Notes: generated from the letters alone by a model not told the origin. A stretch of DNA of 36,207 nt from Bradymonadia bacterium (GCA_046290225.1 JBKAGE010000066.1:1-36207), one strand, 5' to 3'; positions 7,082 to 35,768 are shown, counted from the first letter of the stretch. Numbers and translations: made by a program.

Positions 7082-7149
7082 TGTGGAAGGCGGCGGGCCG
7101 ACCTTCAAAGCCGTGGTATGTCTTCACCCTCTCCATGGGAGACACGTGC

Positions 7150-8712: not shown

Positions 8713-8725
8713 GGAGACGATTCGA

Positions 8726-16982: not shown

Positions 16983-19900
16983 ATGAAACAGCCCATCAGG
17001 CTCCTCGTGTATGCCGTTCTCACGGCATGTTTGACCTTTGCCTGTGACGATGACGAGACCGGAGATGCCACCCCAGGCGCCGATGCTGCTGCCGGTGCTG
17101 GTGGTGAAGCAGGCAATGGTGGTGCCGGTGGCGAAGCTGGCGCGGGCGGCGAGGCCGGTATGGGCGGCGCTGGTGGTGAAGCAGGCGTGGGTGGCGCTGG
17201 AGGTGAGGCCGGCGCTGGCGGCATGGCCGGTGCCGGTGGGGAAGGGGGCATGGTGATCATGCCCGAGACCTTTGCCATTCGATATCACCGCGCCGATGGT
17301 GCCTATGGTGACTGGACCGCCGAGGGTGATCTCGCTGGCAGCGCTGATGACTTCGGCGCCCTCTACGAAGTGCCTCTCGGCGAGTCGGGCACCATCCCCG
17401 TTCAGCTCTATGGTCCTGGAGGCGAGACCCTCTTTGCGGCCCCCGTAGACGTGAACATCGCCGACGCCCCCGACGGGGTGTGGATCTTCCACGGACAGGA
17501 GACGCCCATGACCCGCGCCCCCATGGGGATCCCCGGTGAGAACCAGGTGGCCATCTACTACCTGCGAGGCGATGACGCCTACGAAGGGTGGGGGCTGCAC
17601 CTCTGGGGCGATGTCGTCGAAGAGACTCTGTGGTCGTTCCCGGCGCCTCAGAACGGCATCGATCCCGACTTCGGCGCATATTGGATCGTCGACGTTGCCG
17701 AAGACGGGGATCGGGTGAACCTCATCGTGCACCTGGGCGACGAGAAAGATCCGGGCCCCGACATGGGCTTCGACATCAGCGATCTCGGCGACATCGTCTT
17801 TGTGGTGAGCGGGTCCACCGACATTCATCCGCTGCCGGTGCAGATCCCCGAGTTCGCCATCGACGGCGCCAAGGCGTTCTGGATCGACGCCGACACTGTG
17901 GCTCTCGACGCCCCTGAGGGATCGACACAGTTCGAACTGCGCTATGCCGAGCAGGCGGGCATGGCAGTGGAGGGCCTCGACATCGCCGGCGGTGAGACCG
18001 TTGGGCTGAGCCCTGTCGACGGTGGTCTCACCGAAGATCAGGCGGCCACCTGGCCCCACCTCGCCCGCAAGCAGGCTTTTGCCCTGCCGGGGAACTTCGA
18101 TCGCGACACCCTGCTGCAGAGCCAGCTCATCGTGGTGGCTCGGGACGACAACGGCGCTGCGCTCTGGGCCACCCGCGTGCAGATGCCTGGGGCCATCGAC
18201 GATCTCTACGGCGACTACGACGGCCCTCTTGGCGCAGTGTATGGCGACAACAACGCCCCTGCCGTCTACCTCTGGGCCCCCACCGCCCACGATGTGAAGC
18301 TGCTCCGGTTCGACGAGGCCCTGAACCCCATTGGGGATCCGGTCGACATGATCCGCACCGACAACGGGGTGTGGTCTGCTGCCGGCGGGGCCGACTGGTA
18401 CGGCACCTACTACCGCTACGAGGTCACCGTGTTCCATCCGGTGACCAACCGCGTGGAGACCACCCAAGTCACTGATCCCTACTCGGTGAGCCTGTCGATG
18501 GATGGTCGCTACACTCACCTCGTGAGCCTGGATGATCCAACCTACATGCCCGAGGGCTGGGCCCAGACGCCGAAGCCCGCCCTCGCGGCTCCGGAGGACA
18601 TCGCCCTCTACGAGCTGCACATCCGGGACTTCAGCGCATGGGACGAGACGGTGCCTGCGGCCCACCGGGGCAAGTTCCTGGCGTTTGGCCACAACGGTGT
18701 GGGCGGCGCCGACGAGTCCGACGGTATGGCCCACCTGAAGGCCTTGCGGCAGGCGGGGCTCAACACCATTCACCTGCTGCCGGCCTTCGACATCGCCACG
18801 GTCATCGAAGATCCAGAAGGTCGGGTGGAGATCACCGACGGCTTCGATCGTTTGTGCGCCCTGAACGAGAACGTGCCCGCGGATATGTGCGCTGAGCACG
18901 GCAACACGCCCATCGCCGATGTGCTGGCGAGCTACGCCGGCGACGGCGTGCAGGCCCAGGCGCTGATGAACTACATGCGCAACCTCGACGGCTTCAACTG
19001 GGGCTACGACCCGCTGCATTACACCGCTCCCGAGGGCAGCTACGCCACTGATCCACACGGCGGCAGCCGAATTCTGGAGTTCCGGCGCATGGTGCAGGCC
19101 CTGGCGGAGGTGGACCTGCGGGTGGTGATGGACGTCGTCTACAACCACACCAACGCCTCGGGCATTGGCGAGAAGTCGGTCCTCGACAAGATCGTGCCCG
19201 GGTACTACCACCGCCTCAGCGTGGAGACGGGCTTCGTAGAGACGAGCACGTGCTGCGCCAACACCGCCACGGAGCACAAGATGATGGAGCGGCTGATGCT
19301 GGACTCCCTCGTCACCTGGGCTCGGGCCTACAAGGTCGACGGCTTCCGCTTCGATCTGATGGGCCACCACATGAAGTCGAACATGATCAAGGTCCGCGAC
19401 GCCTTGCACGCCCTCACCCCTGAGGTCGATGGTGTGGTGGGCTCCGAGATCTACCTCTATGGCGAGGGCTGGAACTTCGGCGAGGTGGCCAGCAACGCCC
19501 GCGGTGTGAACGCCACCCAGCTCAACATGGCGGGTACGGGCATCGGCACCTTCAGCGATCGCCTGCGTGACGCTGTGCGGGGCGGAGGTCCTTTCGACAG
19601 CGAAGGTGATCTGGTCCTCAACCAGGGCTTCATCAACGGGCTCTATGTCGATCCCAGCGATCACCCTGACCGCAACCTCGAGGCTGATCGGGCCAAGCTG
19701 CTCGAGCTGAGCGATCAGATCCGGGTGGGCCTCGCGGGCAACCTCAAACGTTTCCGCATCGTGACCCGTACCGGAGGCACCTCACCGGGATCGCTGGTGG
19801 GTTACAACGGCCAGCCGAGCGGCTACACCGAAGACCCGCAAGAGGTGATCACCTACGTCAGCAAGCACGACAACCAGACCCTCTTCGACAACAACGCCTA

Positions 19901-20618
19901 CAAGCTGCCTGCGGGCACCTCCATGGCGGACCGCGTGCGGGTGCACAACCTCGGGGTGAGCCTCACGGCCCTGGGCCAGGGGATCCCGTTCTTCCACGCT
20001 GGGGTCGACATGCTGCGCTCGAAGTCCATGGAGCGCGACTCCTACGACTCCGGGGACTGGTTCAACCGCCTCGACTTCACCTACACCACCAACAACTGGA
20101 AGGTGGGCCTGCCCCGGGAAGATCAGAACGGCAGCAACTGGTCGATCATCGAAGAGATCTTCGCCGACGAGGCCATCGCCCCCACAGGGGCACACATCCA
20201 AGCCGCGGTGGCCCACATGCGCGAGATGCTGCAGGTGCGCTTTAGCACCCCGCTGTTCCGCTTGCGCACCGAGGCTGAGGTCATGACCCGAGTGGACTTC
20301 CACAACGTGGGCCCAGATCAGACGCCCGGGCTGCTCGTCATGAGCGTCACTGATGGCGTGTGTGCTGGTGAGGATCTCGATCCGGCCCACGACGGCTTGA
20401 TCGTGCTGCTCAACGCAACGCCCGAGGCGCAGCAGTTCACCGTAGACGGGCTGTCGGGCATGGTGCTGCACCCGATCCTCGCCGGGAGCGCTGACGAGGT
20501 GGTGCGTGGATCCACCTTCGCTGGTGGGACCTTCACGGTGCCTCCGCGGACGACGGCGGTCTTCGTGATGCCTCAGGAGGGTGGTCAGGGCGCTGGGTTG
20601 CCGTGTAACGGGCGTTGA
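16983..20618 (+). CDS. pulA: Lipoprotein pullulanase (alpha-1,6-glucosidase, GH13, Klebsiella PulA-type) with N-terminal CBM41-like modules
   Basis: Lipobox TFAC, CBM41-like [26 protein letters not shown], and catalytic motifs [15 protein letters not shown] and SKHDNQTL. Confidence 0.92.
17091..17249 (+). repeat. Coding Gly/Ala/Glu low-complexity repeat (GAGGEAG) tether in the pullulanase
   Basis: Repeated GAGGEA units read directly after the lipoprotein N-terminus. Confidence 0.85.
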
Positions 20619-20619
20619 G

Positions 20620-20760
20620 AGCGGACGGCCGTGCTTGCGCACCGCCTGTAGCGGACGGTCATCGCCTTACGGCGACAGCCTGTAGCGGACGCCTGCTTCG
20701 GCTTCGCCTTGCAGAGCTGTAGCGGACGCTGAGTCTGCCTCCGGCAGCCTTTGCTGTAGC
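20620..20760. repeat. Intergenic array of CTGTAGCGGACG repeats separated by variable hairpin-forming spacers (REP-like)
   Basis: Full copies at 20646, 20680 and 20717, with partial copies at 20620 (AGCGGACG) and 20754 (CTGTAGC). Each spacer contains its own inverted repeat. Confidence 0.8.
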
Positions 20761-20834
20761 TTTTTTAGAGAGTGATGGTGTGGCTGGTGGGCTTCTTGAC
20801 TGTGGGCTTGAGCATTCTCAGCAGAGAGACTTGG

Positions 20835-21248
20835 TCACTGTTGAGGCGCGAGAGGCTTCGGGGGCTGCTTGATGTGCTTGAGTGGCTTGCAGGCATCCGC
20901 CACAGGGCCACAGTCCGGCATTTTGAGGCCTTCACTGCTCAAGGCCTCTTCAGCATCGTCACAGAACGCCTTCACTGAAGCGTATCGCTGCGCTGGATCA
21001 GGCTCGACCTGAGAGCCCAGGCGGGCCATGCCCTCGGCGAGCTGCCCGGCCTTGCCTCCACGTGTCCCGATCTCCTCGATGTGTTTCATCATCTTCTTCG
21101 CCACTTCGGCGCGTTGAGTGACCTCGACTGTCAGAAGCTGCTGGTATTCGGGCACCGAGCAGATGGCTTGCAGGTTCTCCTTGTTGTTGGGCTTGGAGGC
21201 GCAGCCAACGAGGGCGAGCACGAGAAGGCTCAATGCATACTTGGACAT
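20835..21248 (-). CDS. Small lipoprotein of unknown function
   Basis: MSKYALSLLVLALVGC lipobox, GGAG RBS and four additional Cys. Confidence 0.7.
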   Translation of the reverse strand: MSKYALSLLVLALVGCASKPNNKENLQAICSVPEYQQLLTVEVTQRAEVAKKMMKHIEEIGTRGGKAGQLAEGMARLGSQVEPDPAQRYASVKAFCDDAEEALSSEGLKMPDCGPVADACKPLKHIKQPPKPLAPQQ

Positions 21249-21364
21249 ATGTGGGGCTCCTGAGCGGGTCAAATGTGAAAGCGTGTGTGATACGCCATCA
21301 TTTCACGTGTCCAGCACGCGATGGATCTTCAATGCTTCGAAAGCACGTGTTCAGGCGTCGGTGT

Positions 21365-23038
21365 TCAACGGAGCTTCACGAAGGCGAACCCTCGGCCCTT
21401 GAGCCCTGCGAATGACAGTTCGCCCTTTGCCTGAGTCGGCTGACCCATCAAGCCCTCTGCGAAAATCACTTCTGCCTCTTCGCTGATCTTCACCGTGAAT
21501 GGCGTCGTCTTCTCCCCGTGGAAGTTCACTAGAAAAAGCACCTTCTCGTCGCCGTGGGTGCGGATGAGGCCCGTGAGGCCGCGATGCTTGCCCGTGATCC
21601 GAACCGGCGCCACCTCGCCGTCGGAAAGCGCCTTGTGTGAAGCGCGCACCCTGATCAAGTCGCGAAACAGGGTCCAGAGTGAGCCCGCTTTGCCCCGCTG
21701 GCTCTCGACGTCTACCCCGGGCTTCTCCGGGCGGCTGCGCCAGGGTGTGCCTGTGGTGAAGCCCCGATGATCGCCGCCGATGGTCCAGGGCATCGGCGTG
21801 CGCTTGTCTTCGTCTTGTCCTGAGGGGCCGCCGAGCATGCCCAGCTCTTCGCCGTAGTAGATGAAGGGGGAGCCTGCCTGAGCGAAGAGGGCCGCTGACG
21901 CCACCCGCATCGCCCCCGGATCTTCCCGCAGCGTGCGCATCACCCGCTTCATGTCGTGGTTCGCGAGGAAGGGCGCTTCGAAATTGCGGTCCGCGTAGGC
22001 CTTCTTCAGGCGGGGTTGTACCTGGTTGAACGAGGCCTTCAGTCCGTCGTTCGCCGACTCCCTGAGAGAGCCCGCCGTGGTGAAGCCGAAGGCCATGTGG
22101 AACTCGTCATCGTCGCCGGCGTAGGTCGCCACCGTCTCTACATCGGTCCAAATCTCGCCGATGAGCATCACTCCGGGGTGGCTCTCCTCGAGGGCCTTGC
22201 GTACGCGCTTCACCAGATCGTGGGAGGCCGGTTGATCCGAGAGCTTGCCGTCGGCGCTTTCGAAGAAGTGGCGGGCCGCGTCTACACGAAAGCCCGCCAC
22301 GCCACGATCGAGCCAGAAGCGCATCGAGCGGATCATCTCTGCTTCGACCTCGGGGTTGGCCAGGTTGAGATCGGGCATGCCCCCCCAGAAGAGGCCGTAG
22401 TAATAATCCTTCCCCGCGCGGTGCCAGACCGGCCCCGAGCCCCAGGGTTGAGTCCACCCCGGATCGTCGGCGCGCCACGTGTACCAGTCTCGGTGCTTTG
22501 ACTCCGGGCCCTTGCGCGCGGATGTGAACCAGGGGTGATCCCGACCGCTGTGGTTCATCACGAAGTCGATGATCACCTTGATGCCGCGGGCGTTCGCCGC
22601 GGCGATGAAGGCGTCGAAGTCGGCGAGGGTGCCGTACTGCGGGTTCACCCCGGTGTAGTCGGTGACGTCGTAGCCGTGATAGCTCGGCGACGGGTGGATC
22701 GGCATCAACCAGATGCCTGTGATGCCCAGGTCGGTGTCCGTGGTCGGATCGCCGTCGTTGAGGTAGTCCAGCTTTGCCGTGAGCCCCTTGAAATCACCGA
22801 TGCCGTCACCGTCGCTGTCGGCGAAGCTGCGCACGAAGATCTCGTAAAAGACCGCGTCTCGCCACCAGCGGGGCTTCAGTGTGGGTCGGGCCACAGGTGG
22901 ATCTGCCGGGTGGGCCTCAGACCCTGTGGACGCTGGTGTCTGTGCCATGGCGCCGGAGCACAACGCTGTGGTGATCCCGATGGCCAGCGTGACCGCTCTA
23001 CATGGCCTTCGGAGGGGGGCATACCTGGGCTTTGACAT
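21365..23038 (-). CDS. Secreted alpha-amylase family glycoside hydrolase (GH13)
   Basis: Signal peptide, FYEIFVRSFADSDGDGIGD, YHGYDVTDY, DFVMNH, GFRVDAARH, IGEIW and FLANHDM motifs. Confidence 0.93.
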   Translation of the reverse strand: MSKPRYAPLRRPCRAVTLAIGITTALCSGAMAQTPASTGSEAHPADPPVARPTLKPRWWRDAVFYEIFVRSFADSDGDGIGDFKGLTAKLDYLNDGDPTTDTDLGITGIWLMPIHPSPSYHGYDVTDYTGVNPQYGTLADFDAFIAAANARGIKVIIDFVMNHSGRDHPWFTSARKGPESKHRDWYTWRADDPGWTQPWGSGPVWHRAGKDYYYGLFWGGMPDLNLANPEVEAEMIRSMRFWLDRGVAGFRVDAARHFFESADGKLSDQPASHDLVKRVRKALEESHPGVMLIGEIWTDVETVATYAGDDDEFHMAFGFTTAGSLRESANDGLKASFNQVQPRLKKAYADRNFEAPFLANHDMKRVMRTLREDPGAMRVASAALFAQAGSPFIYYGEELGMLGGPSGQDEDKRTPMPWTIGGDHRGFTTGTPWRSRPEKPGVDVESQRGKAGSLWTLFRDLIRVRASHKALSDGEVAPVRITGKHRGLTGLIRTHGDEKVLFLVNFHGEKTTPFTVKISEEAEVIFAEGLMGQPTQAKGELSFAGLKGRGFAFVKLR

Positions 23039-23264
23039 CAAAACAGCCTCGCGTGGGGGTGTGACGCAGTCGGGCGCACACGGCGTTCAAATGGGGTTCG
23101 TGCCTGGGGCAAGTTAAAGAAGTCTTTGTCTTTAATGGGAAAGTTTTCAGATGGGCTCATTGCGCGCCGATGCATCCCGGCGACTGATGGTTGCAGCCGC
23201 TGTGGATAACTTGCAAAACATGCGGGGATGACCCTTTTTACAAGGTCAGTCACAGTCCTCCAAT

Positions 23265-23281
23265 TCGGCACACGGGGTGCT
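23265..23281 (+). promoter_or_regulatory. Putative sigma54 promoter of the DOMON/barrel-lipoprotein operon
   Basis: TCGGCACACGGGGTGCT with GG(23267-68)-N10-GC(23279-80), about 75 nt upstream of the start codon. Confidence 0.55.
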
Positions 23282-23353
23282 ACAGCTCGGGCTGCCATCG
23301 GGGCGTCAGGACGCACGCAGCCAGGCCGTCGAGCACACAGGAGAAGGTCAGAC

Positions 23354-26200
23354 GTGGTGAACGCCAAATCCATCATCAGCCCTCGGGCTCTCTCTGCCTT
23401 CGCCCTCTCCGGGGCGTTGCTCGGCCTGGCGGCGAGCGCCAGCGCGCAAGCGGTGGCCGGGGTGACATTGGAAGATCCCGCCGGCGACGACAAGGGCCCC
23501 GGGGCCTATGTCTACCCCACCGACAAGGTCTACAAGGCCGGCGCCTTCGACCTGCGCAAGTTCGAGGTGATCCCCAAGGGTGACACCGTCGAGTTTCGCG
23601 TCACTGTGAACAGCCGCATCGAGGACCCCTGGGATTCGAAGGCCTGGAAGGGGAACGGCTTCTCGGTGCAGATGGCGTTCATCCACATCGACACCGATCA
23701 CAAGCCGGGCTCGGGTGCCGTCGAGTCCATGCCCGGCGTGAACGTGAAGTTCCGCCCCGAAGAGGCCTGGGACAAGCTGGTCATCATCAGCCCCCAGCCC
23801 CAGAGCCGGTTGAACAGCGAGGTCGACTCCAAGGCCCCTGGTCTCAAGGACAGGGTGGTGGTGCCCAAGGTCACTCGGGCGAGCGGCAAGACCCTCATCG
23901 CCATCGTCGACGCTGCCCAGCTCGGTGGCGCCCCTCAGGCGAGCTGGGGCTACCAGGTGCTGGTGCAGTCCAACGAGGGCTTCCCCGACAAGACCGATCT
24001 GCTCACCCGGAAGGTGAACGAGTACGAGGGTCAGCACCGCTTCGGCGGCGGCAGCGACTACGACAACGATCCCCACGTCATCGACATGCTCGCCGGTGGT
24101 GGCGCCGGTGCTGCCGACGAGGCCAAGGCCCAGTTCAGCGCCCTCGACGCCTACAACAAAGAGGCGTTCGAAGGCACGACTCTCGCCGATCTGGCCACCG
24201 TGCCCATGATCTACCCCGCCGCCGGTGGTGCCGCGGCGCCTGTGGCTCAGCCGCCTGCGGCGAGCCCGAACCCGCCTGCGGCAGCGCCTCGCCCTGCGGC
24301 GCCTCGCAAGGTCGAGACCTTCGAGATGAACGGGAAGATCTACACCAAGTGGCTCTACAAGAACGACGACAGCCGGGGTTGCCTCTCACTGTCGAACCCG
24401 TTCTGGCCCGACAACATCGGCGGCAGCAACGGCGCCTGCACCGAGTTCGAGATGAACATCCGGGGCCGGGTGAGCCGCTATGTCACCGCAGGGGTGCGCA
24501 TCAAGAGCCGCTTCGGCGCCTTGTGGCAGAACTGGTGGGAGAACGGCGACACCCGCTGGGACTACCCCAACGACGATCCCTTCCACGAGAACACCTCGGG
24601 CGAGACCCTGGGCATGAACCACGCCCAGTACATGAAGCTCCGCGGCACCTTCATCCGGGCCAAGCTGCCCATCCCCACCGTGGAGTGGGTGCACATCGGC
24701 GCCAGCGATCTGTCGATGTTCAACGCCTGGACCGTGGGCAAGGTGCGCTACATCGACCGCGACAACGCCAACGGCGTGTTCTTCGAGGGCGCCTTCGACG
24801 ACCGGTTCCGCTACCACACCGCCGCCATCGCCACGCCGAAGCTCTTTGTGGGTCCCCGCTGGACCTCGGGTCTGCAGGATGCCGACCCTCTGGCGGGCTT
24901 CTGGGGCGCCGACTGGACCTACGCCTTCAAGCTCGAGGCTGATCCCACTGACGATCTCCAGGTGGAGTTCGTGGCGAGCTACGTCAACGACTACGAGGCC
25001 GACGACAACGATCCTGACGTCACTGGGGCCTCGGATGCTGATCGCGGTACTGATCGAGCCATCGACTGGGAGAACCGCTTCCAGGCCCTCAACCTCACCC
25101 TCGACGTGAGCTACTCCCCGAGCGCCTGGGACAACAAGGTGGCCATCAACGGCTTGCTGGCCTACGCCCACAACGAGCCCAACCACGATTACGCCACCAA
25201 CGGCGTGCAGAACGATCAGGGCTTCTCGCCGGTGCTGTTCCTCACCGACGAGGACGGCAACCCCGAGGCCGCCAAGGACATCGCCGGCAAGCTGCTCATC
25301 GAGTTCCTCGATCCCTTCGACAACGGCCTCAACCTCAAGATCGAGGCCTTCAGCATCGGCAGCGAGTTCAACGCCATCTTCGGCGCCCGCCGCGAGGCCG
25401 ACGTGCTGCTCACCGAAGGCATCATCACCAGCGGCTTCATCAGCGGCGGCCAGCTGCCCACCCTCAACCTCGCCAACGAGTTCGTGGACTTCGACGAGCC
25501 CTGGTACGAGTCCATCATCGGCTGGCGAGGCCTGACAGGGCTCTTGGAGTGGGTGAGCGGCTCGATCCGGACCTCGGTGGAATACACCATGATCGACTAC
25601 AACACCGATCAGCAGTTCCGGGACACGGACAACCAGTATCCCGACTTCCTCTACACCGATGGTTTCACTGATCCCCAGGCCTTCACCGCCGACTTCGACT
25701 ACTCAAACGTCTTCGATCGCGGCAGTGACCCACGCAGCGTCTACAAGCTGCATCAGTCCCGCTTCACCCAGATCGCCATCTTCAACGGCGAGACCCGTCT
25801 GCCCTACTTCGAGGACACGACGCTGAGCACCAAGCTCAAGCTCGTCCTCGACACCGACAAGCGGAACCGGACCAACACCGAGGACAACTACGACGGTCAG
25901 ATGCTTCTGGCCTACGGCATGCTGAGAACACAGTGGAACAACGAGCTCAGCACCGGTGTGGGGTACGAAATCCAGGACTGGGAAGAGAAGAACCGCTCTG
26001 GTTCGCAAGAGACCGGGTTCTTTGATTACCATACCCGCAAACACACGGGCCGCTTCGTCGCAGGGTACGATTTCGGCGGTCTGAAGTTCGGTTACCTGCT
26101 CGAGTACTTCCACAAGGACCAGGAGCGGAACCGACCCGGTGTCTCTGATCAGGCATGGCGCGTCTGGCGTTCCAAGGCCACCCTCGAAGTTGCATGGTGA
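23354..26200 (+). CDS. Glucodextranase-C/DOMON-like domain fused through a Pro/Ala linker to a putative outer-membrane beta-barrel
   Basis: Signal peptide ending ASA-Q and DPAGDDKGPGAYVYPTD...FDL DOMON-like motif. The C-terminal ~630 aa have alternating polar/hydrophobic strands and end KATLEVAW. Confidence 0.75.
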   Translation: MVNAKSIISPRALSAFALSGALLGLAASASAQAVAGVTLEDPAGDDKGPGAYVYPTDKVYKAGAFDLRKFEVIPKGDTVEFRVTVNSRIEDPWDSKAWKGNGFSVQMAFIHIDTDHKPGSGAVESMPGVNVKFRPEEAWDKLVIISPQPQSRLNSEVDSKAPGLKDRVVVPKVTRASGKTLIAIVDAAQLGGAPQASWGYQVLVQSNEGFPDKTDLLTRKVNEYEGQHRFGGGSDYDNDPHVIDMLAGGGAGAADEAKAQFSALDAYNKEAFEGTTLADLATVPMIYPAAGGAAAPVAQPPAASPNPPAAAPRPAAPRKVETFEMNGKIYTKWLYKNDDSRGCLSLSNPFWPDNIGGSNGACTEFEMNIRGRVSRYVTAGVRIKSRFGALWQNWWENGDTRWDYPNDDPFHENTSGETLGMNHAQYMKLRGTFIRAKLPIPTVEWVHIGASDLSMFNAWTVGKVRYIDRDNANGVFFEGAFDDRFRYHTAAIATPKLFVGPRWTSGLQDADPLAGFWGADWTYAFKLEADPTDDLQVEFVASYVNDYEADDNDPDVTGASDADRGTDRAIDWENRFQALNLTLDVSYSPSAWDNKVAINGLLAYAHNEPNHDYATNGVQNDQGFSPVLFLTDEDGNPEAAKDIAGKLLIEFLDPFDNGLNLKIEAFSIGSEFNAIFGARREADVLLTEGIITSGFISGGQLPTLNLANEFVDFDEPWYESIIGWRGLTGLLEWVSGSIRTSVEYTMIDYNTDQQFRDTDNQYPDFLYTDGFTDPQAFTADFDYSNVFDRGSDPRSVYKLHQSRFTQIAIFNGETRLPYFEDTTLSTKLKLVLDTDKRNRTNTEDNYDGQMLLAYGMLRTQWNNELSTGVGYEIQDWEEKNRSGSQETGFFDYHTRKHTGRFVAGYDFGGLKFGYLLEYFHKDQERNRPGVSDQAWRVWRSKATLEVAW

Positions 26201-26205
26201 GTGTC

Positions 26206-27576
26206 ATGGTATTCAAATACGTTAAAATCGCAGGCCTGATGGGTCTGGTGGGTGCCTCGCTCTCTGGATGTGGTCTCGAAGGGGCCGTCGTCGAGGCGTT
26301 GGGCGAGACGAACGAGCTGCCGGCCACCCGTATCCGGGGCTCTGCTGCGAACCAGCCTACGGCGATGACTTACACCGAGCCCAACGGTGATCTGGTCGAG
26401 GCCGTCGAGGGCCCCGACTTCAACGGCGCGAGCTTCTACATCGCGCTGCCTTCGGGGAGCTACACCAACGGTCGCCTCTCGGCGGCGAACGGTGAGCGGG
26501 TGATGACCACCCTGGTGCCCGAGCTCTTCGAAGAGAGCGCCATCGACGGCGTGGTCATCGACGCCTCCACCACCACGTCTACCCTCATCACCGACGCGGT
26601 GCTGTCTGCTGGGGGTCGCACCCTGCAGAATGTCGAGCCCCGCGAGGTGATCGAGATCTTCGACCAGATGGCTGCGGCGTATGGTGAAGAGGGCCGCGAG
26701 CAGGCGTTCCTGCGCATGGTGGAGCGGGTGCTCGAGGCCGCCTCGACCGGTGGCAACATACCGGTGTTCAACATCCCGGCCTTCGACGCCGAGTTCAACG
26801 CCACGGCCCCCACCCTCAACCCCGACTGGCTCGCCGCCCGTCAGGTAGATTACGACGGCGACGGCGCCCCCGACTCGGACGCTGCTGCCTTCGACGCCGC
26901 CCTCGGCCGAGTGGTGGAGAGCCGTCTGTCAGAGCCGGTCTGCTACGATCCGCAGCTGATCCAGGTGGTCTTCGAGGTCGACTTCAACGAGGGCCGCCTC
27001 GACGGGAACTGCGACAGCATCAACCGCTTCCGGTGGGTGCAGGACGAGCCCGGCAAGCAGATGTACTTCGTCGGCGGGGTGCACGAAGAGTCAGAGCTTC
27101 AAGATCCCATCGTCGATGCCATCCTCGGCAACACCGGCAGCTGGACCCCGAACACCGTGCCCATGTACGACGACGGCACCAACGGTGACGAGGTGGCCGG
27201 CGACAACATCTGGACCCGGGCCTTCGCCCTGCCCATCGGCATGCGCATGGGCTACAAGTACACCTGGGGCCAGCAAGGGCAGCTCTGGACCGGCAGCGAA
27301 GAGTGGCCCGGGAACCAGCACATCCTCGAGATCGTCGACGTGAACGGAGACAACTTCGTCCGCCGCCGCGACAACTTCGGCGACGAGGCCACCAACAAAG
27401 ATTTGTCCAACCTCGGTCGCGACAGCGGCGGCATGGTGACCTGGGACAGCGATCACAACGGTGATGGCATCCCCGATGTGCACGAGCGGCCCATCGACGT
27501 GGACAACGACTGCACCCTCGACGAATGGCTCACCCCCACCGCCGTGCCACCTCTCACTGTTCCCTGTGAAGAGTGA
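26206..27576 (+). CDS. Lipoprotein with a YDDGTNGDxxAGDxxW motif (choice-of-anchor X-like), putative glycan-binding
   Basis: Lipobox LSGC, PMYDDGTNGDEVAGDNIWT, Trp-rich YKYTWG region and DxDxDG Ca-binding loops. Start may be 26197. Confidence 0.7.
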   Translation: MVFKYVKIAGLMGLVGASLSGCGLEGAVVEALGETNELPATRIRGSAANQPTAMTYTEPNGDLVEAVEGPDFNGASFYIALPSGSYTNGRLSAANGERVMTTLVPELFEESAIDGVVIDASTTTSTLITDAVLSAGGRTLQNVEPREVIEIFDQMAAAYGEEGREQAFLRMVERVLEAASTGGNIPVFNIPAFDAEFNATAPTLNPDWLAARQVDYDGDGAPDSDAAAFDAALGRVVESRLSEPVCYDPQLIQVVFEVDFNEGRLDGNCDSINRFRWVQDEPGKQMYFVGGVHEESELQDPIVDAILGNTGSWTPNTVPMYDDGTNGDEVAGDNIWTRAFALPIGMRMGYKYTWGQQGQLWTGSEEWPGNQHILEIVDVNGDNFVRRRDNFGDEATNKDLSNLGRDSGGMVTWDSDHNGDGIPDVHERPIDVDNDCTLDEWLTPTAVPPLTVPCEE

Positions 27577-27695
27577 AGGTGTAAAGCGTGTAACAGGCAA
27601 AAGACTTGAAAAAGACCTCCAGGTTGCATTTCAGTGCATGCCTGGAACGTGTGAAACCTGCTGACCGGGAGCGTCAGCATGGGAGGAGCAAATAC

Positions 27696-29090
27696 ATGAA
27701 GCGCGTACACAGCAAGAAGCTCGCGATCCTGTTCAGCAGCGTGTTGGCTCTGGGCATGGTGGCCTGTGACGATGACGACGACGGTGGCAGCGGCACCGCG
27801 GGTGCTGGTGGCGGCGAGGCCGGCGCTGGCGGCGGCGAGGCCGGCGCTGGTGGCGGCGAGGCCGGTGCCGGTGGTGGTGAGGCTGGCGCCGGTGGCGGTG
27901 AGGCCGGTGCTGGTGGCGGCGAAGGCGGCGCTGGTGGCGAGGCCGGTATGGGCGGCGCTGGTGGCGGTGGCGAGTTCAGCCAGGCCTGCATCGACGCTTG
28001 CACCACCCTGGCCGACTGCTCGGCGAACTCCGACGCCTGCCCGGGCATCACCCCCGAGACCCGGGACGGGTTCTACGACGCTTGCCTGCCCACCTGCGAG
28101 GCCAACCCTGCTCTGCGGGCCCTCGTGAACGGTGACGATTGTGATGGCACCGTCAACACGCTCCGTGGCCTCAACGAGGACTTCGACAACGGCTGCGTGG
28201 ATGATGGCATGGGCGGCGCTGGCGGCGGCGGTGGCATGATGATGCCCGGTCCCTTCGACGGCAACCAGCCCGAGGGCACCACGGCCATCAACTTCACCAT
28301 CGACGACAGCGCCAACATGACCTACGGCGAGGCCGACGGCCTGGCATGGAAGGGCAGCTTCTCCTACGATCCCGAGACCCGCATCCTGACCCGCGATCCC
28401 GGGTGGGGCGGCCCCTTCGCCGTGGTGTACGACGACGGTGCTTGGAACGAGGGCGGTCACGAGCCTGCTGGCGCCGTCGCGGGCGACAGCGTCTGGGGCA
28501 TCACTGTCTTCTACCCCAACCCCGCCGAGGACACCCCCTTCGAGTACGGCGCCATCAACGGCTCCGTCGATGGCTCTGACGGTGGCTGGATCTGGATCGG
28601 CGCCAACGGCAGCTTCACCGTCGCCGCTGGCGGCAGCGCCGACGGCATCACCGCCGACGGCCTGGTGATCCCCGCCCATGGCACCATCGACATGCGCCTC
28701 ACCATCGACACCGGTGCGCTCGACGAGTCCTTCGCCGAGTTCGACCCCGCCAACGGCGTGCGGGTGAAGGGCAACGCCTTCGCCTGGAACGAGGTGGACT
28801 GCGTGGACGACGGCACCAACGGTGACGTCACCGCCGGCGACGGCGTCTACACCTTCGTGCTCAGCGAGAACGTGGGCGAGGGCACCAGCCTGCCCCACTC
28901 CGGTCTGCTCCTGAGCGGCGACATGCCCCAGTTCGTCTTCGTGCTCGGCGGTGTGGAGTACAAGGTGGGCGGCATCGCCTCCACCGCTGGCGTGGCTGCC
29001 TCCACTCAGGCCCCCGAGGGCGAGTGGGCCGACGCCCCGGTGATGAACCAGCCCGACGGCGATCAGAACACCTTCATCACGGTGCCCTGA
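27696..29090 (+). CDS. Lipoprotein with Gly-rich tether, Cys-rich module and two DDG..AGD (choice-of-anchor X-like) domains
   Basis: GGAGGAG RBS, lipobox MVAC, and motifs YDDGAWNEGGHEPAGAVAGDSVWG and VDDGTNGDVTAGDGVYTF. Confidence 0.75.
   Translation: MKRVHSKKLAILFSSVLALGMVACDDDDDGGSGTAGAGGGEAGAGGGEAGAGGGEAGAGGGEAGAGGGEAGAGGGEGGAGGEAGMGGAGGGGEFSQACIDACTTLADCSANSDACPGITPETRDGFYDACLPTCEANPALRALVNGDDCDGTVNTLRGLNEDFDNGCVDDGMGGAGGGGGMMMPGPFDGNQPEGTTAINFTIDDSANMTYGEADGLAWKGSFSYDPETRILTRDPGWGGPFAVVYDDGAWNEGGHEPAGAVAGDSVWGITVFYPNPAEDTPFEYGAINGSVDGSDGGWIWIGANGSFTVAAGGSADGITADGLVIPAHGTIDMRLTIDTGALDESFAEFDPANGVRVKGNAFAWNEVDCVDDGTNGDVTAGDGVYTFVLSENVGEGTSLPHSGLLLSGDMPQFVFVLGGVEYKVGGIASTAGVAASTQAPEGEWADAPVMNQPDGDQNTFITVP
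27798..27923 (+). repeat. Coding tandem repeat, 6 x 21 bp (AGAGGGE)
   Basis: Six consecutive heptapeptide units with synonymous codon variation. Confidence 0.9.
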
Positions 29091-29181
29091 TTCGCGCCTC
29101 GGCGCCCCGCGCTTTCAGCGCGGGAAAGCCTGCAAAAACCCCTCCTTGACTGATTGACAAGGGGGAGCTGATGTAGGCAAT

Positions 29182-29221
29182 AAAGGAGGCATGCCCCGCT
29201 GTGGTGCGTGCCTCTTTTTTT
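29182..29221 (+). terminator. Rho-independent terminator
   Basis: GGAGGCATGC...GCGTGCCTCT stem followed by a T-run. Confidence 0.75.
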
Positions 29222-29294
29222 GTCTATCCATCACACCCACCACAAGGCCTGAAGGTACAAGGCCTGCGCTACAGAATCTGAGTCACAGAGCCTG

Positions 29295-30617
29295 ATGCCA
29301 TCACACACAGCATGTTCCAGCGAAGCGCGGTCCTCGAGACACATCTCGAGTGTGTGGGCTGTATGGTCCGTGGTGTGGGCACCCATGGTGGCCACCATGA
29401 CGCTGGTGATGTCGACGGCCATGGCGGCGCCAGCCCTCGAACTGAAAGATCCCAGCTACGACGACAAGGGGGCCGGCACCCTCGTCTACCCCACCGAGCC
29501 GGGGTACCAGAGGCGGGGGCTCTTCGATCTCAGGCGGGTCACCGTTGAGGTCGACGGCGACGAGGCGGTCTTCTCCATCACCCTCGGCGCCCCCATCGTG
29601 AAGCCCGAGGCCCCACGCATCACCGACGCGGTGATGATCGAGCTGAACAACAACATCTATGTTCAGCACATCGACATCTACATCGATCGAGATCCACGAC
29701 CTGGAGCTGGCCACACCGAGGCGCTGCCCGGACGGAACGTGAGCTTCAACCGCGACAACGCCTGGGACCAGGCCGTGGTCGTCACACCGAGGCCTTTTGC
29801 CCTGAAGTCCACCCTCACGGGGTGGGCCCCAGCCAGAGATGTCATCACCCCCACGCGGGTGAACAGCATCGGCAACACCGTCGTGGCCCGCGTGCCGCTG
29901 ATCGATCTCGGCGGTGCCCCGCAGAAACACTGGGGCTGGCAGGTGGCGGTGAGCGGCGCGCTGTGGGTGAGTGGTCTGCAAGCGTATGGCCGCCTCGGTG
30001 ACGACGGCCACCCCAACGCCATGACCATGCGCGTGACCCCCGTAGCCGAGCGCTTCGCCTTTGGCGGGGGCGACGTGGTGCTCAACCAGCCCCACGTCAT
30101 CGATTTGCTCGCCCCCGAGGGCATCAGCCAGAAGACGATTTTGAAGACCTACAACGCCCGGACCGGGGCCTTCGCCACGGTGCCCATGGTGTATCCCGAT
30201 CCAGCGGCTCGAGAGGCCGAGAAGGCCAAGGCGTTGAAGTTGTTGGGTCCTGTGGCCGCAGCTGCGCCCATGCTCACCGGGACCCCCTCAGTGGGCGCGC
30301 CTGCTTCGGGCGTCGGTGCGTTGCTGCCCAACGGGGTGCCCTCTGCTGCGCCAGAGGCCCCTGTAGGCTACTTCGAGCTGGGCATCAAAGATGTTCAGGA
30401 CGAGACCGTGGTCCTCGAGAAGCCCGCCGAGGGAGATCCCCGAGAGGTGAAGGCCTTCAAGGTGGGCACCGTCGTCGACTTTTACGGGCGCCCCATCGGG
30501 AAGGTGGTGATCACCACCATTTACCCCAAGTTCATCCTGGCCACCCCCATCGAGGGGCAAGGCCAGCTCGCCGGCGGTGCCCGGGTGAGATTCAAGACGC
30601 AGGAGACTGCACCATGA
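29295..30617 (+). CDS. Secreted glucodextranase-C/DOMON-like protein with a small C-terminal beta domain (start uncertain)
   Basis: DPSYDDKGAGTLVYPT...FDL, IDIYID and PHVIDLL are paralogous to the N-terminus of 23354-26200. Signal peptide ends AMA-A, and the stop overlaps the next start (ATGA). Confidence 0.78.
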   Translation: MPSHTACSSEARSSRHISSVWAVWSVVWAPMVATMTLVMSTAMAAPALELKDPSYDDKGAGTLVYPTEPGYQRRGLFDLRRVTVEVDGDEAVFSITLGAPIVKPEAPRITDAVMIELNNNIYVQHIDIYIDRDPRPGAGHTEALPGRNVSFNRDNAWDQAVVVTPRPFALKSTLTGWAPARDVITPTRVNSIGNTVVARVPLIDLGGAPQKHWGWQVAVSGALWVSGLQAYGRLGDDGHPNAMTMRVTPVAERFAFGGGDVVLNQPHVIDLLAPEGISQKTILKTYNARTGAFATVPMVYPDPAAREAEKAKALKLLGPVAAAAPMLTGTPSVGAPASGVGALLPNGVPSAAPEAPVGYFELGIKDVQDETVVLEKPAEGDPREVKAFKVGTVVDFYGRPIGKVVITTIYPKFILATPIEGQGQLAGGARVRFKTQETAP

Positions 30618-31819
30618 AGTACGCACGTAGTCTGGCGGCCGCTGTGGCCGCTACCCTTCTCATCCCCGCCTTCGCCGCTGCCGAGACCACCGTCTCGGTG
30701 TGGCACGCCTACCGTGGCAAGGAGAAGGCCGCCCTCACCGAGGTGGCCGAGAAGTTCAACTCGGCCAACGCCGACGTCAAGATCAAGCTGCTGGGCATCC
30801 CCTACGACGCCTTCGCCGACAAGATCAGCGCCGCCGTGCCGCGGGGCAAGGGTCCGGACCTCTTCATCTTCGCTCAGGATCGTGTCGGTGACTGGGCGGC
30901 GAGCAAGCTCATCGAGCCCCTCGACTTCTGGATGACCGAAGAGCTCGAGAAGGCCTACCTCGAGCCCACCCTCGAGGCCCTCACTTACGACGACAGCGTG
31001 TATGGCCTGCCCATCGCCGCCAAGAGCGTGGCGTTGTTCTACAACACCGATCTCGTCAAGGCGCCCCCCAAGACCACCGACGAGATGGTCACCCTGGCCA
31101 AGAGTCTCACCGACAAGGGCAAGAAGCAGTACGGCCTCGTCTACGAGAACGCCAACTTCTACTTCCACGGCATGTGGATGCAGGGCTTCGGCGGCAAGGT
31201 GTTCAGCAAGAAGGGCAAGCCCACCCTGGCGAGCAAGGCCGTGGTGGACTCCCTGGCCTTCGCCCAGAACCTCGCGAAGAAAGAGGGCATCATGCCCCAG
31301 GAGGTCAGCGGCAACCTGGTGAGCACCCTGTTCAACGACGGCAAGGCCGCCATGGTCATCAACGGCCCCTGGTTCATGGGCGAGATCAGCGGCAACGTGA
31401 AGTACAAGGTGGCGCCCCTGCCCACCATCAGCGCCTCCGGCAAGCCCGCCACCCCCTTCCTCAGCGCCGAGGGCGTCATCATGAGCGCCAAGGCCAAGGA
31501 CAAGAAGGCCGCCTTCAAGGTGATGCAGTACCTCACCGGCAGCGAGGCCGGGAAGATCCTCGCCACCAAGGGACGCCAGCTCGTGGCCCGCAAAGATGTG
31601 CACGCTGATCCTGCCGTGAAGGGTGATCCGCTGCTCGCCGCCTTCCGCAAGCAGCTCAAGCACTCCCGCCCCATGCCCAACACCCCAGCCATGCTCATGG
31701 TCTGGACCCCCGCCACCACGGCCATGAACAAGGTGATCAACGGCGACACCGCCCCCGCAGACGCAGCCAAGGCGATGCAGGCCGAGGTCGAAGCGCTGGT
31801 CAAGGGCGCCAAGCGCTGA
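30614..31819 (+). CDS. malE: Maltose/maltodextrin-type ABC transporter substrate-binding protein (MalE-like)
   Basis: Signal peptide, GPDLFIFAQDRVG, LFYNTDLV, AMVINGPW and PMPNTPAM motifs. Confidence 0.88.
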   Translation: MKYARSLAAAVAATLLIPAFAAAETTVSVWHAYRGKEKAALTEVAEKFNSANADVKIKLLGIPYDAFADKISAAVPRGKGPDLFIFAQDRVGDWAASKLIEPLDFWMTEELEKAYLEPTLEALTYDDSVYGLPIAAKSVALFYNTDLVKAPPKTTDEMVTLAKSLTDKGKKQYGLVYENANFYFHGMWMQGFGGKVFSKKGKPTLASKAVVDSLAFAQNLAKKEGIMPQEVSGNLVSTLFNDGKAAMVINGPWFMGEISGNVKYKVAPLPTISASGKPATPFLSAEGVIMSAKAKDKKAAFKVMQYLTGSEAGKILATKGRQLVARKDVHADPAVKGDPLLAAFRKQLKHSRPMPNTPAMLMVWTPATTAMNKVINGDTAPADAAKAMQAEVEALVKGAKR

Positions 31820-31832
31820 TCCGGAGGAACAA

Positions 31833-32947
<1,115 letters not shown>

Positions 32948-32951
<4 letters not shown>

Positions 32952-34891
32952 AGCGTGGCGCCCTCTACCTCGGCATCTCCACCGCCCTGGTGACCCTGGC
33001 GTGGATGACCCTGGCCCATTTCCAGAACAAGGCCGATGAAGAGCAGTTCCAGGCGCGCCGTGCCGCCCGAGTGGCCCGGGCGGTGGCGTGGGTCTACGAG
33101 CAGGAAGATCTGCGAGAAGATGACGAGGCCGAGGACATGGCCCAGCGCTTCACCGAGGCGGTCACCAAGGCCCCAGGGGTGAAGCAGGCCTTCGTGCTGC
33201 GCAAGGTCAAGTTCAAGACCCACAGCGATCCCGACAGGGTGGGCAAGCGCCTCGATCGCGAGAGCGTGGCCGACAAGGTGCTGTTCGACACCGCCAAGGA
33301 CATCAAGTCCAACGTGCGGAACAACGTCGAAGAGCGCACCGCGCGGCCTGATCTCAAGCGCAACCCATTCGAAGAGATCCAGATCAAGCTGCTCGACGAC
33401 GGCACCATCGCAGCCTTCGTGCCCACGTTCAGCGAGGGCGAGGCCGACGCCATGGCCCGGGTGGTGGTGGCTCCCGTACCCAGCGAGGGGCCATTCCCCA
33501 CCTCGTTGGTCCTCATCGCCTTGGGGATCCTGCTCGCTGGCATCGGCGCCGGGCTGTTTCTCACAGGCCCGCCGGTGCGCCTTGTAGGGAGCATGCTCGT
33601 CGTGGGCCTGGCGGTCGCCGCGGTGTACAGCCTCGCCGACTGGCGGGCCGAGTTGAGGGCGCATCACGCCCAGCTCGAGGCGGAGACGCTCAGCGCCCTG
33701 AGCGACGCGGGGTTGCTCACCGCCGCTGCACCAGAGCATGCAGAGAAGCTCACCGAGGCCATCACCCGGGACGCCTTCGGCGAGCCCCGGGGTGACATCA
33801 CGGCATTGAGCACTGATGCCCTCTCCGGAGAGGTGCAGACCTTCGAAGCAGGCGCCCTGAAGATGGGCGTCTCGAAGTCGTGGCTCCAGGCCACCCGGTC
33901 TCAGGACGTGGGTCACTTGACGAAGTGGGCCATCGGGTTCGGCGTGATCGGGCTGCTCGTCTTCCTGCTCGGCGAGATCGGGCGCATCGGCCGCGCAGGG
34001 CGAGCGCTGAAGGCCCACCGGTCTGCGTACTACTACTTGTCACCGGCCATGCTGGGCATGGTGGTGCTGGTCCTCATCCCGGCGATGTACGGCGTGGTCC
34101 TGAGCTTCTTCTCTCGGGACTACAACCTCTTCAACTTCGCCGGGCTCGACAACTACATCCAGATTCTGTCCAACTTCGACATCGACGAGCCGAAGAACTT
34201 CTACTTCAAGCTCGGCGTCACCGTGTTGTGGACCTTCAGCAACATCGTGCTCCACGTGGGCATCGGACTGTTCCTGGCCATCTTGCTCAACGACAAGATG
34301 CTCAAGGCCAAGGGCTTCTTCCGGGTGCTGCTCATCGTGCCGTGGGCCCTGCCCAACTACATCACCGCGCTGATCTGGAAGAGCATGTTCAACAACGAGT
34401 TTGGCGCGGTGAACTCGTTCATCAAGCTCATGGGCGGAGAGACCTCGTCGTGGTTTCAGGACTTCTGGTCCGCCTTTGCCACCAACCTCGCCACCAACAC
34501 TTGGCTGGGCTTCCCCTTCATGATGGTGGTCTCGTTGGGGGCGCTGCAGAGCATCCCCGCCGATCTCTACGAGGCCGCCCGTGTGGACGGGGCGAGCCGA
34601 TGGCAGCGCTTCAAGGACATCACCTTCCCGTTGTTGATGCCCGCGTTGGTGCCTGCCGTCATCGTGGGCACGGTGTGGACCTTCAACATGTTCAACGTGA
34701 TCTATCTGGTGAGCGGCGGTGCGCCCAATGGCGCCACCGACATCTTGATCACTGATGCCTATCGGTGGGCCTTCGAGGCGAACAAGTACGGCTTCGCTGC
34801 GGCGTACTCCACGATCATCTTCGTGATCTTGTTGCTGTTCACGTTGGTCACCAACCGGATCACCGGCGCCACCAAGGGGGCCTTCGAGTGA
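32948..34891 (+). CDS. malF: Carbohydrate ABC permease (MalF-like) with a long N-terminal extension
   Basis: WLGFPFMM and EAA loop LYEAARVDGAS in the C-terminal half, plus about 350 extra N-terminal residues with TM helices and soluble domains. Confidence 0.88.
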
Positions 34892-34925
34892 TGGGCAACG
34901 CTACAGGCGTACGGGAGTCGCGATA

Positions 34926-35768
34926 ATGTCGCTCAAAGAGGATCACCCCTATACCCCACTTCGTCTGGCGAAGATGGCGTTCTTGCTGGTGTTCACGCTG
35001 CTCACGTTGTTCCCGGTGTTGTGGGTCTTGAAGATGGCCTTCAACGAGGGGCAGGGCTTCGAGGGGTCTCTGAGCCCCCTGCCGCCCAAGCCCACCCTGA
35101 GCAACTTCGATCACATCTTCAATCAGGAGCCGTTCTTCACGTGGCTCTGGAACAGCGCCCTCGTCAGCATCGCCACGACAGTGCTCGGGGTGTTCCTGGC
35201 GTGCACCAGCGCCTACGCCCTGAGCCGGTTTCGGTTCCCCGGGCGCTCCACAGCCATGGTGTCGTTCCTCGCCGTGCAGATGTTCCCCGGCGTGTTGATG
35301 ATGATCCCCCTGTATCTCATCATCGACTCATTGGGCCTGCTCGACAATCTGTTGGGCCTGGTGCTGGTGTATTCCACCACGGCCATCCCGTTCTGTGTGT
35401 GGATGCTCAAGGGCTACTTCGACACGATCCCCAAAGAGCTGGAAGAGGCGGCGCTGATGGACGGCGCCACCCCTGCCTTGATCTTCTGGCGCATCATCAT
35501 GCCGTTGAGCCTGCCCGCCGTGTCGGTCACGGCCCTGTTCTCGTTCATGACCGCCTGGAACGAGTTCATCCTCGCGGCGGTCTTCATGAACGATAAGAAC
35601 AACTTCACGCTGCCCGTGGGGCTGAACTCCTTCGTGGGATCTCAGTCCACTTCTTGGGGCTATTTCGCCGCCGGCGCTGTGTTGGTGAGCATTCCGATCA
35701 TGGCGCTGTTCTTCATGTTGCAGAAGAACCTCGTGGGCGGCCTCACCAGCGGTGGTGTGAAGGGATGA
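34926..35768 (+). CDS. malG: Carbohydrate ABC permease (MalG-like)
   Basis: KGYFDTIPKELEEAALMDGA, AWNEFILA, TLPVGL and terminal GLTSGGVKG motifs. Confidence 0.92.
   Translation: MSLKEDHPYTPLRLAKMAFLLVFTLLTLFPVLWVLKMAFNEGQGFEGSLSPLPPKPTLSNFDHIFNQEPFFTWLWNSALVSIATTVLGVFLACTSAYALSRFRFPGRSTAMVSFLAVQMFPGVLMMIPLYLIIDSLGLLDNLLGLVLVYSTTAIPFCVWMLKGYFDTIPKELEEAALMDGATPALIFWRIIMPLSLPAVSVTALFSFMTAWNEFILAAVFMNDKNNFTLPVGLNSFVGSQSTSWGYFAAGAVLVSIPIMALFFMLQKNLVGGLTSGGVKG

Follow-up and report, generated by a model that had tools for sequence, protein, structure and literature searches.

A conserved alpha-glucan utilization locus of Bradymonadia, apparently undescribed and apparently built on a new outer-membrane beta-barrel family that probably takes the place of LamB

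The analyzed window, a stretch of 36,207 nucleotides from a Bradymonadia bacterium, is contig C66 of an 8.58-Mb genome with 99.4% completeness (labeled G000 among the genomes compared here), and its positions 16983..35768 hold a locus for the utilization of alpha-glucans. The locus combines a pullulanase, an alpha-amylase-family enzyme and a Mal-type ATP-binding cassette (ABC) importer with a fusion of a Glucodextran_C (DOMON) domain to an outer-membrane beta-barrel, two lipoproteins with a DDG motif (Lp1 and Lp2), and a second DOMON protein. An earlier reading of the window from its letters alone, referred to below as the original prediction, had named all of these components, and each was found in its place by the listing of open reading frames (ORFs) and by family scans. 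The locus is real and conserved, apparently undescribed, and apparently built on a new barrel family. It comprises the following genes and gene parts.

16983..20618, plus strand: pullulanase-type alpha-1,6-glucosidase (GH13) lipoprotein with PUD (PF03714) and CBM48 (TIGR02103, 1186 bits against a cut-off of 698; Pfam domains)
20835..21272, minus strand: small lipoprotein-like ORF of 145 codons, no Pfam match
21365..23041, minus strand: exported enzyme of the GH13 alpha-amylase family, transcribed divergently from the barrel operon (PF00128, E 2.5e-91)
23357..24310, plus strand: DOMON1 part of the fusion, with signal peptide, Glucodextran_C domain and Ala/Pro linker (PF09985, E 1.6e-54)
24311..26200, plus strand: outer-membrane beta-barrel part of the fusion, C-terminal, 629 aa, unannotated (AlphaFold2 model; terminal aromatic residue)
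26155..27576, plus strand: lipoprotein Lp1 (lipobox Cys at 26269; NF041940 above cut-off)
27606..29090, plus strand: lipoprotein Lp2 (Cys at 27765, likely start 27699; NF041940 above cut-off)
29295..30617, plus strand: DOMON2, a Glucodextran_C protein that is exported and has a small additional domain at its C-terminus (PF09985, E 2.1e-40)
30614..31819, plus strand: MalE-like sugar-binding protein (SBP_bac_1/8; top NCBIfam match MalE, 177 bits, under the cut-off of 291)
31833..32951, plus strand: MalK-like ABC ATPase (ABC_tran, OB_MalK, TOBE; NCBIfam MalK, 446 against a cut-off of 568)
32948..34891, plus strand: MalF-like permease with a long N-terminal extension (BPD_transp_1; top NCBIfam match MalF, 193 against a cut-off of 392)
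34926..35768, plus strand: MalG-like permease (BPD_transp_1; top NCBIfam match MalG, 202 against a cut-off of 261)

The DOMON-barrel fusion is a single 990-codon ORF (23357..26200, plus strand), in which the barrel occupies residues 362-990, and it is followed on the plus strand by Lp1, Lp2, DOMON2, malE, malK, malF and malG; promoter and terminator scans gave chance-level results. Since all four Mal proteins score under the NCBIfam equivalog cut-offs, their maltodextrin specificity rests on context. A lipobox-like Cys is present in the pullulanase of the window; among the pullulanase-matching ORFs of related loci, whose start calls are rough, 22 of 44 have one. As the original prediction had stated, no LamB, SusC or SusD is recognizable: Pfam and NCBIfam scans of the locus revealed no match to the LamB, TonB-receptor or SusD families, and PF02264 (LamB) has no match anywhere in the genome. 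PF00593 has seven matches in the genome (six above the cut-off), all on other contigs, and the only one that shares its contig with a GH13 gene lies 428 kb away from it. A family scan of the window's locus detected no tonB or exb gene; a C-terminal motif of TonB, a weak test, matched 0 of 1786 crudely called neighboring ORFs.

The barrel has no Pfam or NCBIfam match. With residues 362-990 as the query, we identified 559 relatives among 7998 scored candidates; three overlapping, candidate-limited searches retrieved 559, 785 and 809 proteins, and the barrel profile yielded 209 matches at E 0.001 or better among 1.84 billion representatives. Most of the 120 listed relatives stand alone, measure about 650 aa and possess a signal peptide, and the C-terminal residue is Trp or Phe in 119 of the 120. 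Fusion to a DOMON domain is rare (PF09985 in 4 of the 120); it is not an assembly error of the window, because P0002 (86% identical), P0035, P0062, P0132 and P0144 are fused as well. Scanning of 45 diverse members against Pfam gave weak generic barrel matches alone (OMP_b-brl in 4 of 45, Porin_4 in 1 of 45); PF00593 matched 0 of 45, and PF02264 matched neither the window barrel nor 44 diverse homologs. The barrel profiles A1 and A2 had 0 matches to E 10 in a sequence search of the PDB. Distant homologs have 26-32% identity, and two distant subfamilies belong, by their source names, to Acidobacteriota (Holophagales, Thermoanaerobaculaceae) and Pseudomonadota (Gallionella, Rubrivivax, Gammaproteobacteria). 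Every named barrel carrier found is a metagenome-assembled genome; the distant barrels are all named 'hypothetical protein', and two generic 'opacity protein-like' names are the exceptions across the listed relatives. A plasmid match for P0148 was sought and not found. Judged from sequence matches and source names, the barrel system ranges beyond Myxococcota, the setting envisaged by the original prediction, into Acidobacteriota and Pseudomonadota. Records titled as enterobacteria or other groups whose barrels fall within Myxococcota branches were not counted toward this range: in L001, L046, L057, L065, L067 and L077, titled as alphaproteobacteria or enterobacteria, both the barrels and the gene order lie within those branches, and the titles are probably unreliable. 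The locus had been presumed undescribed, and no description of it or of the barrel was found in the literature searched, which included passages of PMC9603273, PMC5286417 and PMC10074034; a member may still be listed by its locus tag in a proteomic or transcriptomic table.

The AlphaFold2 model of the barrel, built with 112 sequences, has a predicted local distance difference test score (pLDDT) of 80.6 and a predicted TM-score of 0.82, and its secondary-structure list contains 22 long strands; covariation among 423 sequences (Neff 189) gave a few hairpin ladders and was too noisy for a strand count. Loops L1-L8 after odd strands are 22-55 residues long, L9, L10 and L11 have 10, 3 and 7 residues, and the turns after even strands have 2-8. 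This pattern and standard barrel topology would place the N-terminus, and with it the fused DOMON1 ahead of strand 1, in the periplasm. The modeled barrel is without a plug, because nothing precedes strand 1 in stand-alone members except the signal peptide and a few residues; in the fusions the N-terminal domain is PF09985, i.e., not a plug with a TonB box. TonB-receptor chains align to the model only from the residue after their plug, and these alignments span model residues 1-629. Foldseek with the barrel model returned generic barrels (query-normalized TM-score, TMq, at most 0.43; root-mean-square deviation, rmsd, 10-18 A), and an exhaustive structural aligner gave a list of closely spaced scores with OpdQ at its head (Z 14.7, rmsd 5.8, 316 aligned), in which AlgE has Z 12.8 and rmsd 6.2 and Wzi has Z 10.2 and rmsd 7.0; neither search gave a stand-out relative, a result that does not establish a new fold. 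Conservation over the 45 diverse members is concentrated in loops L2, L3, L4 and L7; in barrel numbering, the conserved positions include the aromatic residues W72, W75, F137, W140, Y147 and W184 and the charged residues R146, R150, R360, R361, E362 and D364.

Phylogenetic profiling used one set of 301 genomes from the phylum, which is taken to be Myxococcota on the basis of the closest homologs. The barrel, PF02264, PF09985 and a MalE-like gene (E 1e-50) were found in 49, 114 (105 above the cut-off), 52 and 168 of these genomes, respectively. The barrel and LamB never co-occur: 0 genomes have both, against 18.6 expected under independence. Among the 168 genomes with a MalE-like gene, 100 have LamB, 47 the barrel, 21 neither and 0 both; conversely, a MalE-like gene is present in 47 of the 49 barrel genomes vs. 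21 of the 138 genomes without either channel, and PF09985 is present in all 49 barrel genomes. The two channels replace one another within families f1 (12 genomes with LamB; barrel in G000 and G096), f24 (six and six) and f40, and within genus g92. LamB genes of Myxococcota adjoin GH13 genes in 14 of 20 loci, so LamB and the barrel share a context; in the family to which the window belongs, they are arranged as lamB-GH13(-GH13) operons, with no DOMON or Lp genes in the loci examined. Divergent LamB-family porins are frequent in Myxococcota (114 of 301 genomes) and usually lie beside GH13 lipoproteins (L080-L099, L181-L190); no paper on them was found in the literature searched.

Gene neighborhoods were examined in 79 genome loci (from the best 80 of 132 confirmed) and in 80 metagenome loci of the distant subfamily (the best 80 of at least 413). 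The tree contains 91 rows, with partial barrels and 64 metagenome loci left out, and five partial or truncated genome loci are outside the neighborhood counts. The window belongs to a 41-row clade with support 99, of which 40 loci were counted. In this clade, DOMON1 lies 5' of the barrel in 39 of 39 loci with enough flank, and Lp1, Lp2 and DOMON2 all lie 3' of it in 32 of 34 long-enough loci (DOMON2 alone in 33 of 34), a conservation that argues against a chance assemblage; full-length loci have a GH13 gene within 9 kb in 26 of 26 cases and mal genes in 23 of 26. In the distant loci, DOMON1 is 5' of the barrel in 73 of 73 cases and DOMON2 3' of it in 31 of 33; all 15 full-length loci contain mal and GH13 genes in the order GH13-malK-E-F-G-DOMON-barrel-DOMON, and a GH77 gene recurs in 15 loci. 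Lp1 and Lp2 are found in 0 of these 80 loci. Among the 34 other genome loci, which form a second Myxococcota branch, DOMON1 is 5' of the barrel in 26 of 30, and in family f15, which belongs to the branch without adjacent mal genes, a MalE-like gene occurs elsewhere in 23 of 23 genomes. In split systems (G084, G284), DOMON1 stays with the barrel or apart from it, and the second DOMON gene adjoins malK-malE-malF. Because Lp1 and Lp2 are missing from the distant loci while the rest persists, the predicted core of the system is the DOMON-barrel-DOMON set together with the Mal ABC importer, and the lipoproteins represent, by gene content, a Myxococcota add-on confined to one clade and a few neighbors. 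Thus, of the single apparatus of four accessory proteins assumed by the original prediction, the DOMON-barrel-DOMON part with malEFGK stands and the two lipoproteins fall outside; similarly, its coupling of the accessory genes with mal and GH13 genes holds in the window clade and the distant loci and fails for mal genes in the second branch. In the branch without mal genes (L047, L062, L063, L065, L074), a phage-tail-tube gene (PF06841) is often located just 3' of the barrel, between dnaK-dnaJ and an amidohydrolase gene.

DOMON1 and DOMON2 are members of the Glucodextran_C family (185 and 139 bits against a cut-off of 22), and the DOMON1 profile matches residues 780-999 of glucodextranase 1ug9 with E 5e-23; it has no match to E. 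coli MalM. In most relatives DOMON1 is a separate gene 5' of the barrel with an ordinary signal peptide; a lipobox occurs in 15 of 134, mostly in the nearest clade of the window. DOMON2 adjoins malK-malE where the locus is split (L199), and G212 has a longer ORF bearing a DOMON domain. In PMC10074034, kinetic hints are given that a domain of the Glucodextran_C type recognizes alpha-glucan, and binding is stated there as not shown. In family f40 (L195:8932-9867, L196:9044-10003, L198:9744-10574), a lone DOMON1 gene has the same neighborhood in genomes with LamB as in genomes with the barrel. The end of DOMON2 (window about 30380-30614) is a small beta-rich domain with no Pfam match, which may resemble the C-terminal domains of FlgT.

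The DDG motif of Lp1 and Lp2 corresponds to the choice-of-anchor X domain of NCBIfam NF041940. The Lp1 model (pLDDT 91.5) has a beta-sandwich at its N-terminus, a helical part and, at about 26956-27384, a domain of CBM20 fold with the DDG insert. All listed Foldseek rows for Lp1 are CBM20-bearing chains (STBD1 CBM20: TMt 0.71, rmsd 4.0, E 7e-4); the match to PF00686 (14.6 bits) is under the cut-off of 23.3, CBM_20 matched 18 of 44 members below the cut-off (E up to 1, best 5e-4), and the domain aligns at 36% identity (E 4e-14) with the CBM20 region at the C-terminus of a GH57 enzyme in L010. The lipobox Cys is invariant among Lp1 relatives, and 36 of 42 Lp2 relatives have a lipobox. Lp2 contains a Gly/Ala linker, a module rich in Cys (27972-28205) and a tandem pair of Trp-rich DDG-motif domains; profile links between these and the Lp1 domain span only the 30-37 columns of the DDG region, and the Lp2 repeats may likewise be CBM20-like. 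Judged by its model, Lp1 is a non-catalytic lipoprotein with a starch-binding fold, predicted to bind starch and resembling SusE/F rather than SusD. SusD/RagB Pfam families matched none of 44 Lp1 and 35 Lp2 members, and the Lp1 model comprises two beta domains and a few helices and is not TPR-rich; SusD is not among the listed Foldseek rows for Lp1, which is not enough to exclude it. SusE and SusF families are not among the Pfam matches of Lp1 and Lp2 to E 0.1, and PDB sequence searches with the Lp1, Lp2 and Lp1-domain profiles gave chance-level matches or none. Taken together, profile and fold comparisons of the accessory proteins identified the CBM20 fold of Lp1 and the PF09985 membership of both DOMON proteins, and generic matches alone for the barrel. 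The Cys-rich module of Lp2, about 78 aa, recurs with 91-93% aa identity in three unrelated lipoproteins of the genome (C81:2020-2250, C82:74990-75211, C49:55130-55354) and as 44-57% copies in three more (on C50, C7 and C41), usually preceded by a Gly/Ala linker; the module could not be detected in any of the 79 related loci, has a weak match to TIGR04453 (E 0.11), and looks like a mobile lipoprotein module.

We propose that this is an alpha-glucan locus in which the barrel probably serves as a passive maltodextrin channel in the place of LamB and passes the sugar on to a DOMON protein in the periplasm and to the MalE/F/G/K importer. Starch, glycogen (perhaps that of prey, as the original prediction suggested) or pullulan would be cut by two enzymes whose families are clear and whose surface location is presumed, the pullulanase lipoprotein and the GH13 enzyme. 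Lp1 and perhaps Lp2 would keep the polymer close to the cell via CBM20-type domains in the manner of SusE/F, a role for which Lp1 has the appropriate modeled fold. Maltodextrins would then diffuse through the barrel, where four long, conserved loops with many Trp/Tyr/Phe and Arg/Asp/Glu residues (L2, L3, L4 and L7) may fold inwards as a selective constriction. As the fusion and the gene order suggest, DOMON1 may catch the chains at the barrel exit and DOMON2 may pass them toward MalE, from which MalEFGK would import them, as is established for this importer family.

Several observations weigh against this interpretation. In full-length loci of the second Myxococcota branch, mal genes are present in 0 of 15 and GH13 genes in 1 of 15, and dnaK, dnaJ and an amidohydrolase gene recur beside the DOMON-barrel pair. 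Two barrel genomes, G119 and G239, have no MalE match; G099 and G164 have DOMON1 and LamB without the barrel, and hence DOMON1 does not strictly need the barrel. Nine of the 114 LamB matches are under the family cut-off, and the exclusion statistic is overstated since kin genomes are not independent. In addition, pLDDT is below 50 in parts of L1-L4, L7 and L8, so that an open pore is not demonstrated by the model.

Among alternative explanations, the least unlikely one regards the barrel as a translocon or anchor by which lipoproteins, both enzymes and starch binders, are displayed on the surface, with the sugar entering otherwise. It is consistent with the position of Lp1 directly 3' of the barrel (34 of 34 window-clade loci and 6 of 25 other genome loci), with GH13 lipoproteins as usual neighbors and with the wide lumen of 22 strands. 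However, the distant loci lack Lp1 and Lp2 altogether, exclusion of LamB would not be expected from a translocon, LamB genomes also have GH13 lipoproteins, and the genome possesses a type II secretin; we therefore regard this explanation as improbable. A gated or energized transporter derived from a degenerate TonB-dependent receptor, with DOMON1 or inward loops as its plug, would account for the 22 strands found also in such receptors, for the place of DOMON1 in the fusions, which is the N-terminal position of a plug, and for FrpB having the top TMq, 0.43. Nevertheless, the FrpB superposition has an rmsd of 13 A, PF00593 and plug families find no match, the mature chain of stand-alone members begins at strand 1, the window's locus is devoid of tonB and exb, and DOMON1 persists in G099 and G164 where the barrel is absent, which makes this origin quite improbable.

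Very distant descent from LamB with the addition of four strands, which would leave the function the same and the family not new, seems very unlikely, even though orthology would equally produce the perfect mutual exclusion, maltoporin is at rank 3 in Foldseek (TMq 0.30-0.32, rmsd 11-13 A), and strands 3-7 are short, like the low wall of trimeric porins. Profile-profile comparison of the barrel with LamB gives a probability of at most 2%, compared with 66.5% (E 5e-5; hmmsearch E 6e-9) for the positive control of E. coli LamB vs. the Myxococcota LamB profile; in the exhaustive alignment LamB (Z 12.5, rmsd 7.1, 285 aligned) is at rank 16, amid and below unrelated barrels, and none of the 45 members scanned matched LamB, in a family whose profile finds its 209 full-library matches. 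A Cys pair in loop 1 was considered as a likeness to LamB and rejected, being unsupported by the profile comparison and not conserved in distant members. As the original prediction had presumed, comparisons of profile, strand number and plug identify the barrel as neither a LamB nor a TonB-receptor homolog. Finally, export or tethering of alpha-glucan by an AlgE-, Wzi- or DUF6029-like barrel is highly improbable: language-model features place DUF6029 (0.95), alginate export (0.94) and Porin_4 (0.94) closest among the named clusters, and PMC9603273 links DUF6029 to polysaccharide secretion, but the genes nearby encode hydrolases, GH77 and an importer with a binding protein, no synthase or OPX cluster recurs among the annotated neighbors, the 45 members have no Pfam match to DUF6029, AlgE or Wzi families above chance, and Wzi is given as 18-stranded in the same source.

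The proposed LamB substitute shares features with several known systems. LamB is an 18-stranded barrel that forms a trimer with an aromatic slide in its lumen. The enterobacterial maltose system (LamB of PF02264, MalE/F/G/K, MalM; PulA in Klebsiella) likewise comprises a barrel, an ABC importer, a GH13 or pullulanase lipoprotein and GH77; across genomes our barrel fills the LamB slot, and a periplasmic accessory gene adjoins the barrel gene, as malM adjoins lamB. The present system differs in having 22 predicted strands instead of 18, without detectable homology, two DOMON proteins instead of MalM, and extra CBM20-type lipoproteins. With the Bacteroides Sus system (SusC/D/E/F/G) it shares a 22-strand barrel, Lp1 and probably Lp2 as counterparts of SusE/F, and lipid-anchored GH13 enzymes comparable to SusG; in contrast to Sus, it has no plug or TonB box region and no SusD-family protein, an ABC importer follows, and the lipoproteins are optional and CBM20-like, without SusE/F Pfam matches. 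The analogy to Sus drawn in the original prediction is therefore better replaced by that of a LamB substitute feeding an ABC importer, with Lp1 CBM20-like rather than SusD-like and the fused DOMON periplasmic by topology. Caulobacter MalA and other TonB-dependent maltodextrin receptors provide a single-barrel maltodextrin route with the same strand number, whereas the present barrel has no PF00593 match and no plug. CymA of Klebsiella oxytoca is a passive channel for cyclodextrins and alpha-glucans, neither LamB nor TonB-dependent, that works with an ABC importer; it is far smaller (312 residues in PDB entry 4d5b) and only a generic structural match (Z 12.2, rmsd 7.8). Because CymA exists, to speak of a third type of capture system, as had been suggested, is an overstatement, and the barrel would be one more type of alpha-glucan channel. 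The Glucodextran_C domain is appended to a hydrolase in glucodextranase of Arthrobacter globiformis (1ug9, C-terminal domain) and in GH57 amylopullulanases, whereas the DOMON proteins described here are free-standing or barrel-fused. The LamB-GH13 operons of Myxococcota (L182-L189) occur in the same host families, with the same MalE subfamily elsewhere in the genome, but consist of lamB followed by one or two GH13 genes, with no DOMON or Lp1/Lp2 genes in the loci examined.

The remaining features of the window include the ORF at 20835..21272, which has no tblastn counterpart in the 79 and 80 related loci and is therefore, on this comparison, probably outside the system. The N-terminal extension of MalF (32948-33900) has a weak match to sCache_3_2 (E 8e-4), and similarly long MalF proteins are encoded in distant loci. 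Upstream, positions 7081-10273 encode a tandem pair of membrane-anchored Ser/Thr kinases, whose kinase domains are almost the same and whose N-terminal membrane parts differ, and positions 12555-14870 encode a response regulator receiver, DUF4388 and a membrane-anchored TPR protein, 5' of tsaD and ksgA; the glucan locus begins directly after ksgA.

More tentatively, and with well under even confidence, we consider a broader proposal, in which the system represents a new importer class: a 22-strand, plug-less, TonB-independent, loop-gated barrel that would pass long or branched alpha-glucans, while the two DOMON proteins in the periplasm would form a binding ratchet that relays the chain to MalE, a class spread over Myxococcota, Acidobacteriota and Pseudomonadota, to which one Myxococcota clade would have independently added a Sus-like surface of CBM20 lipoproteins. 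A plug-less barrel of 22 strands would stand out among sugar channels, its architecture lying between those of porins and TonB-dependent receptors, and the system provides the first natural free-standing Glucodextran_C proteins for testing alpha-glucan binding by this domain. The role proposed here assigns a function that can be tested to a large family of barrels without annotation and would explain the uptake of starch fragments without LamB in about a quarter of the sampled MalE-bearing Myxococcota (47 of 168).

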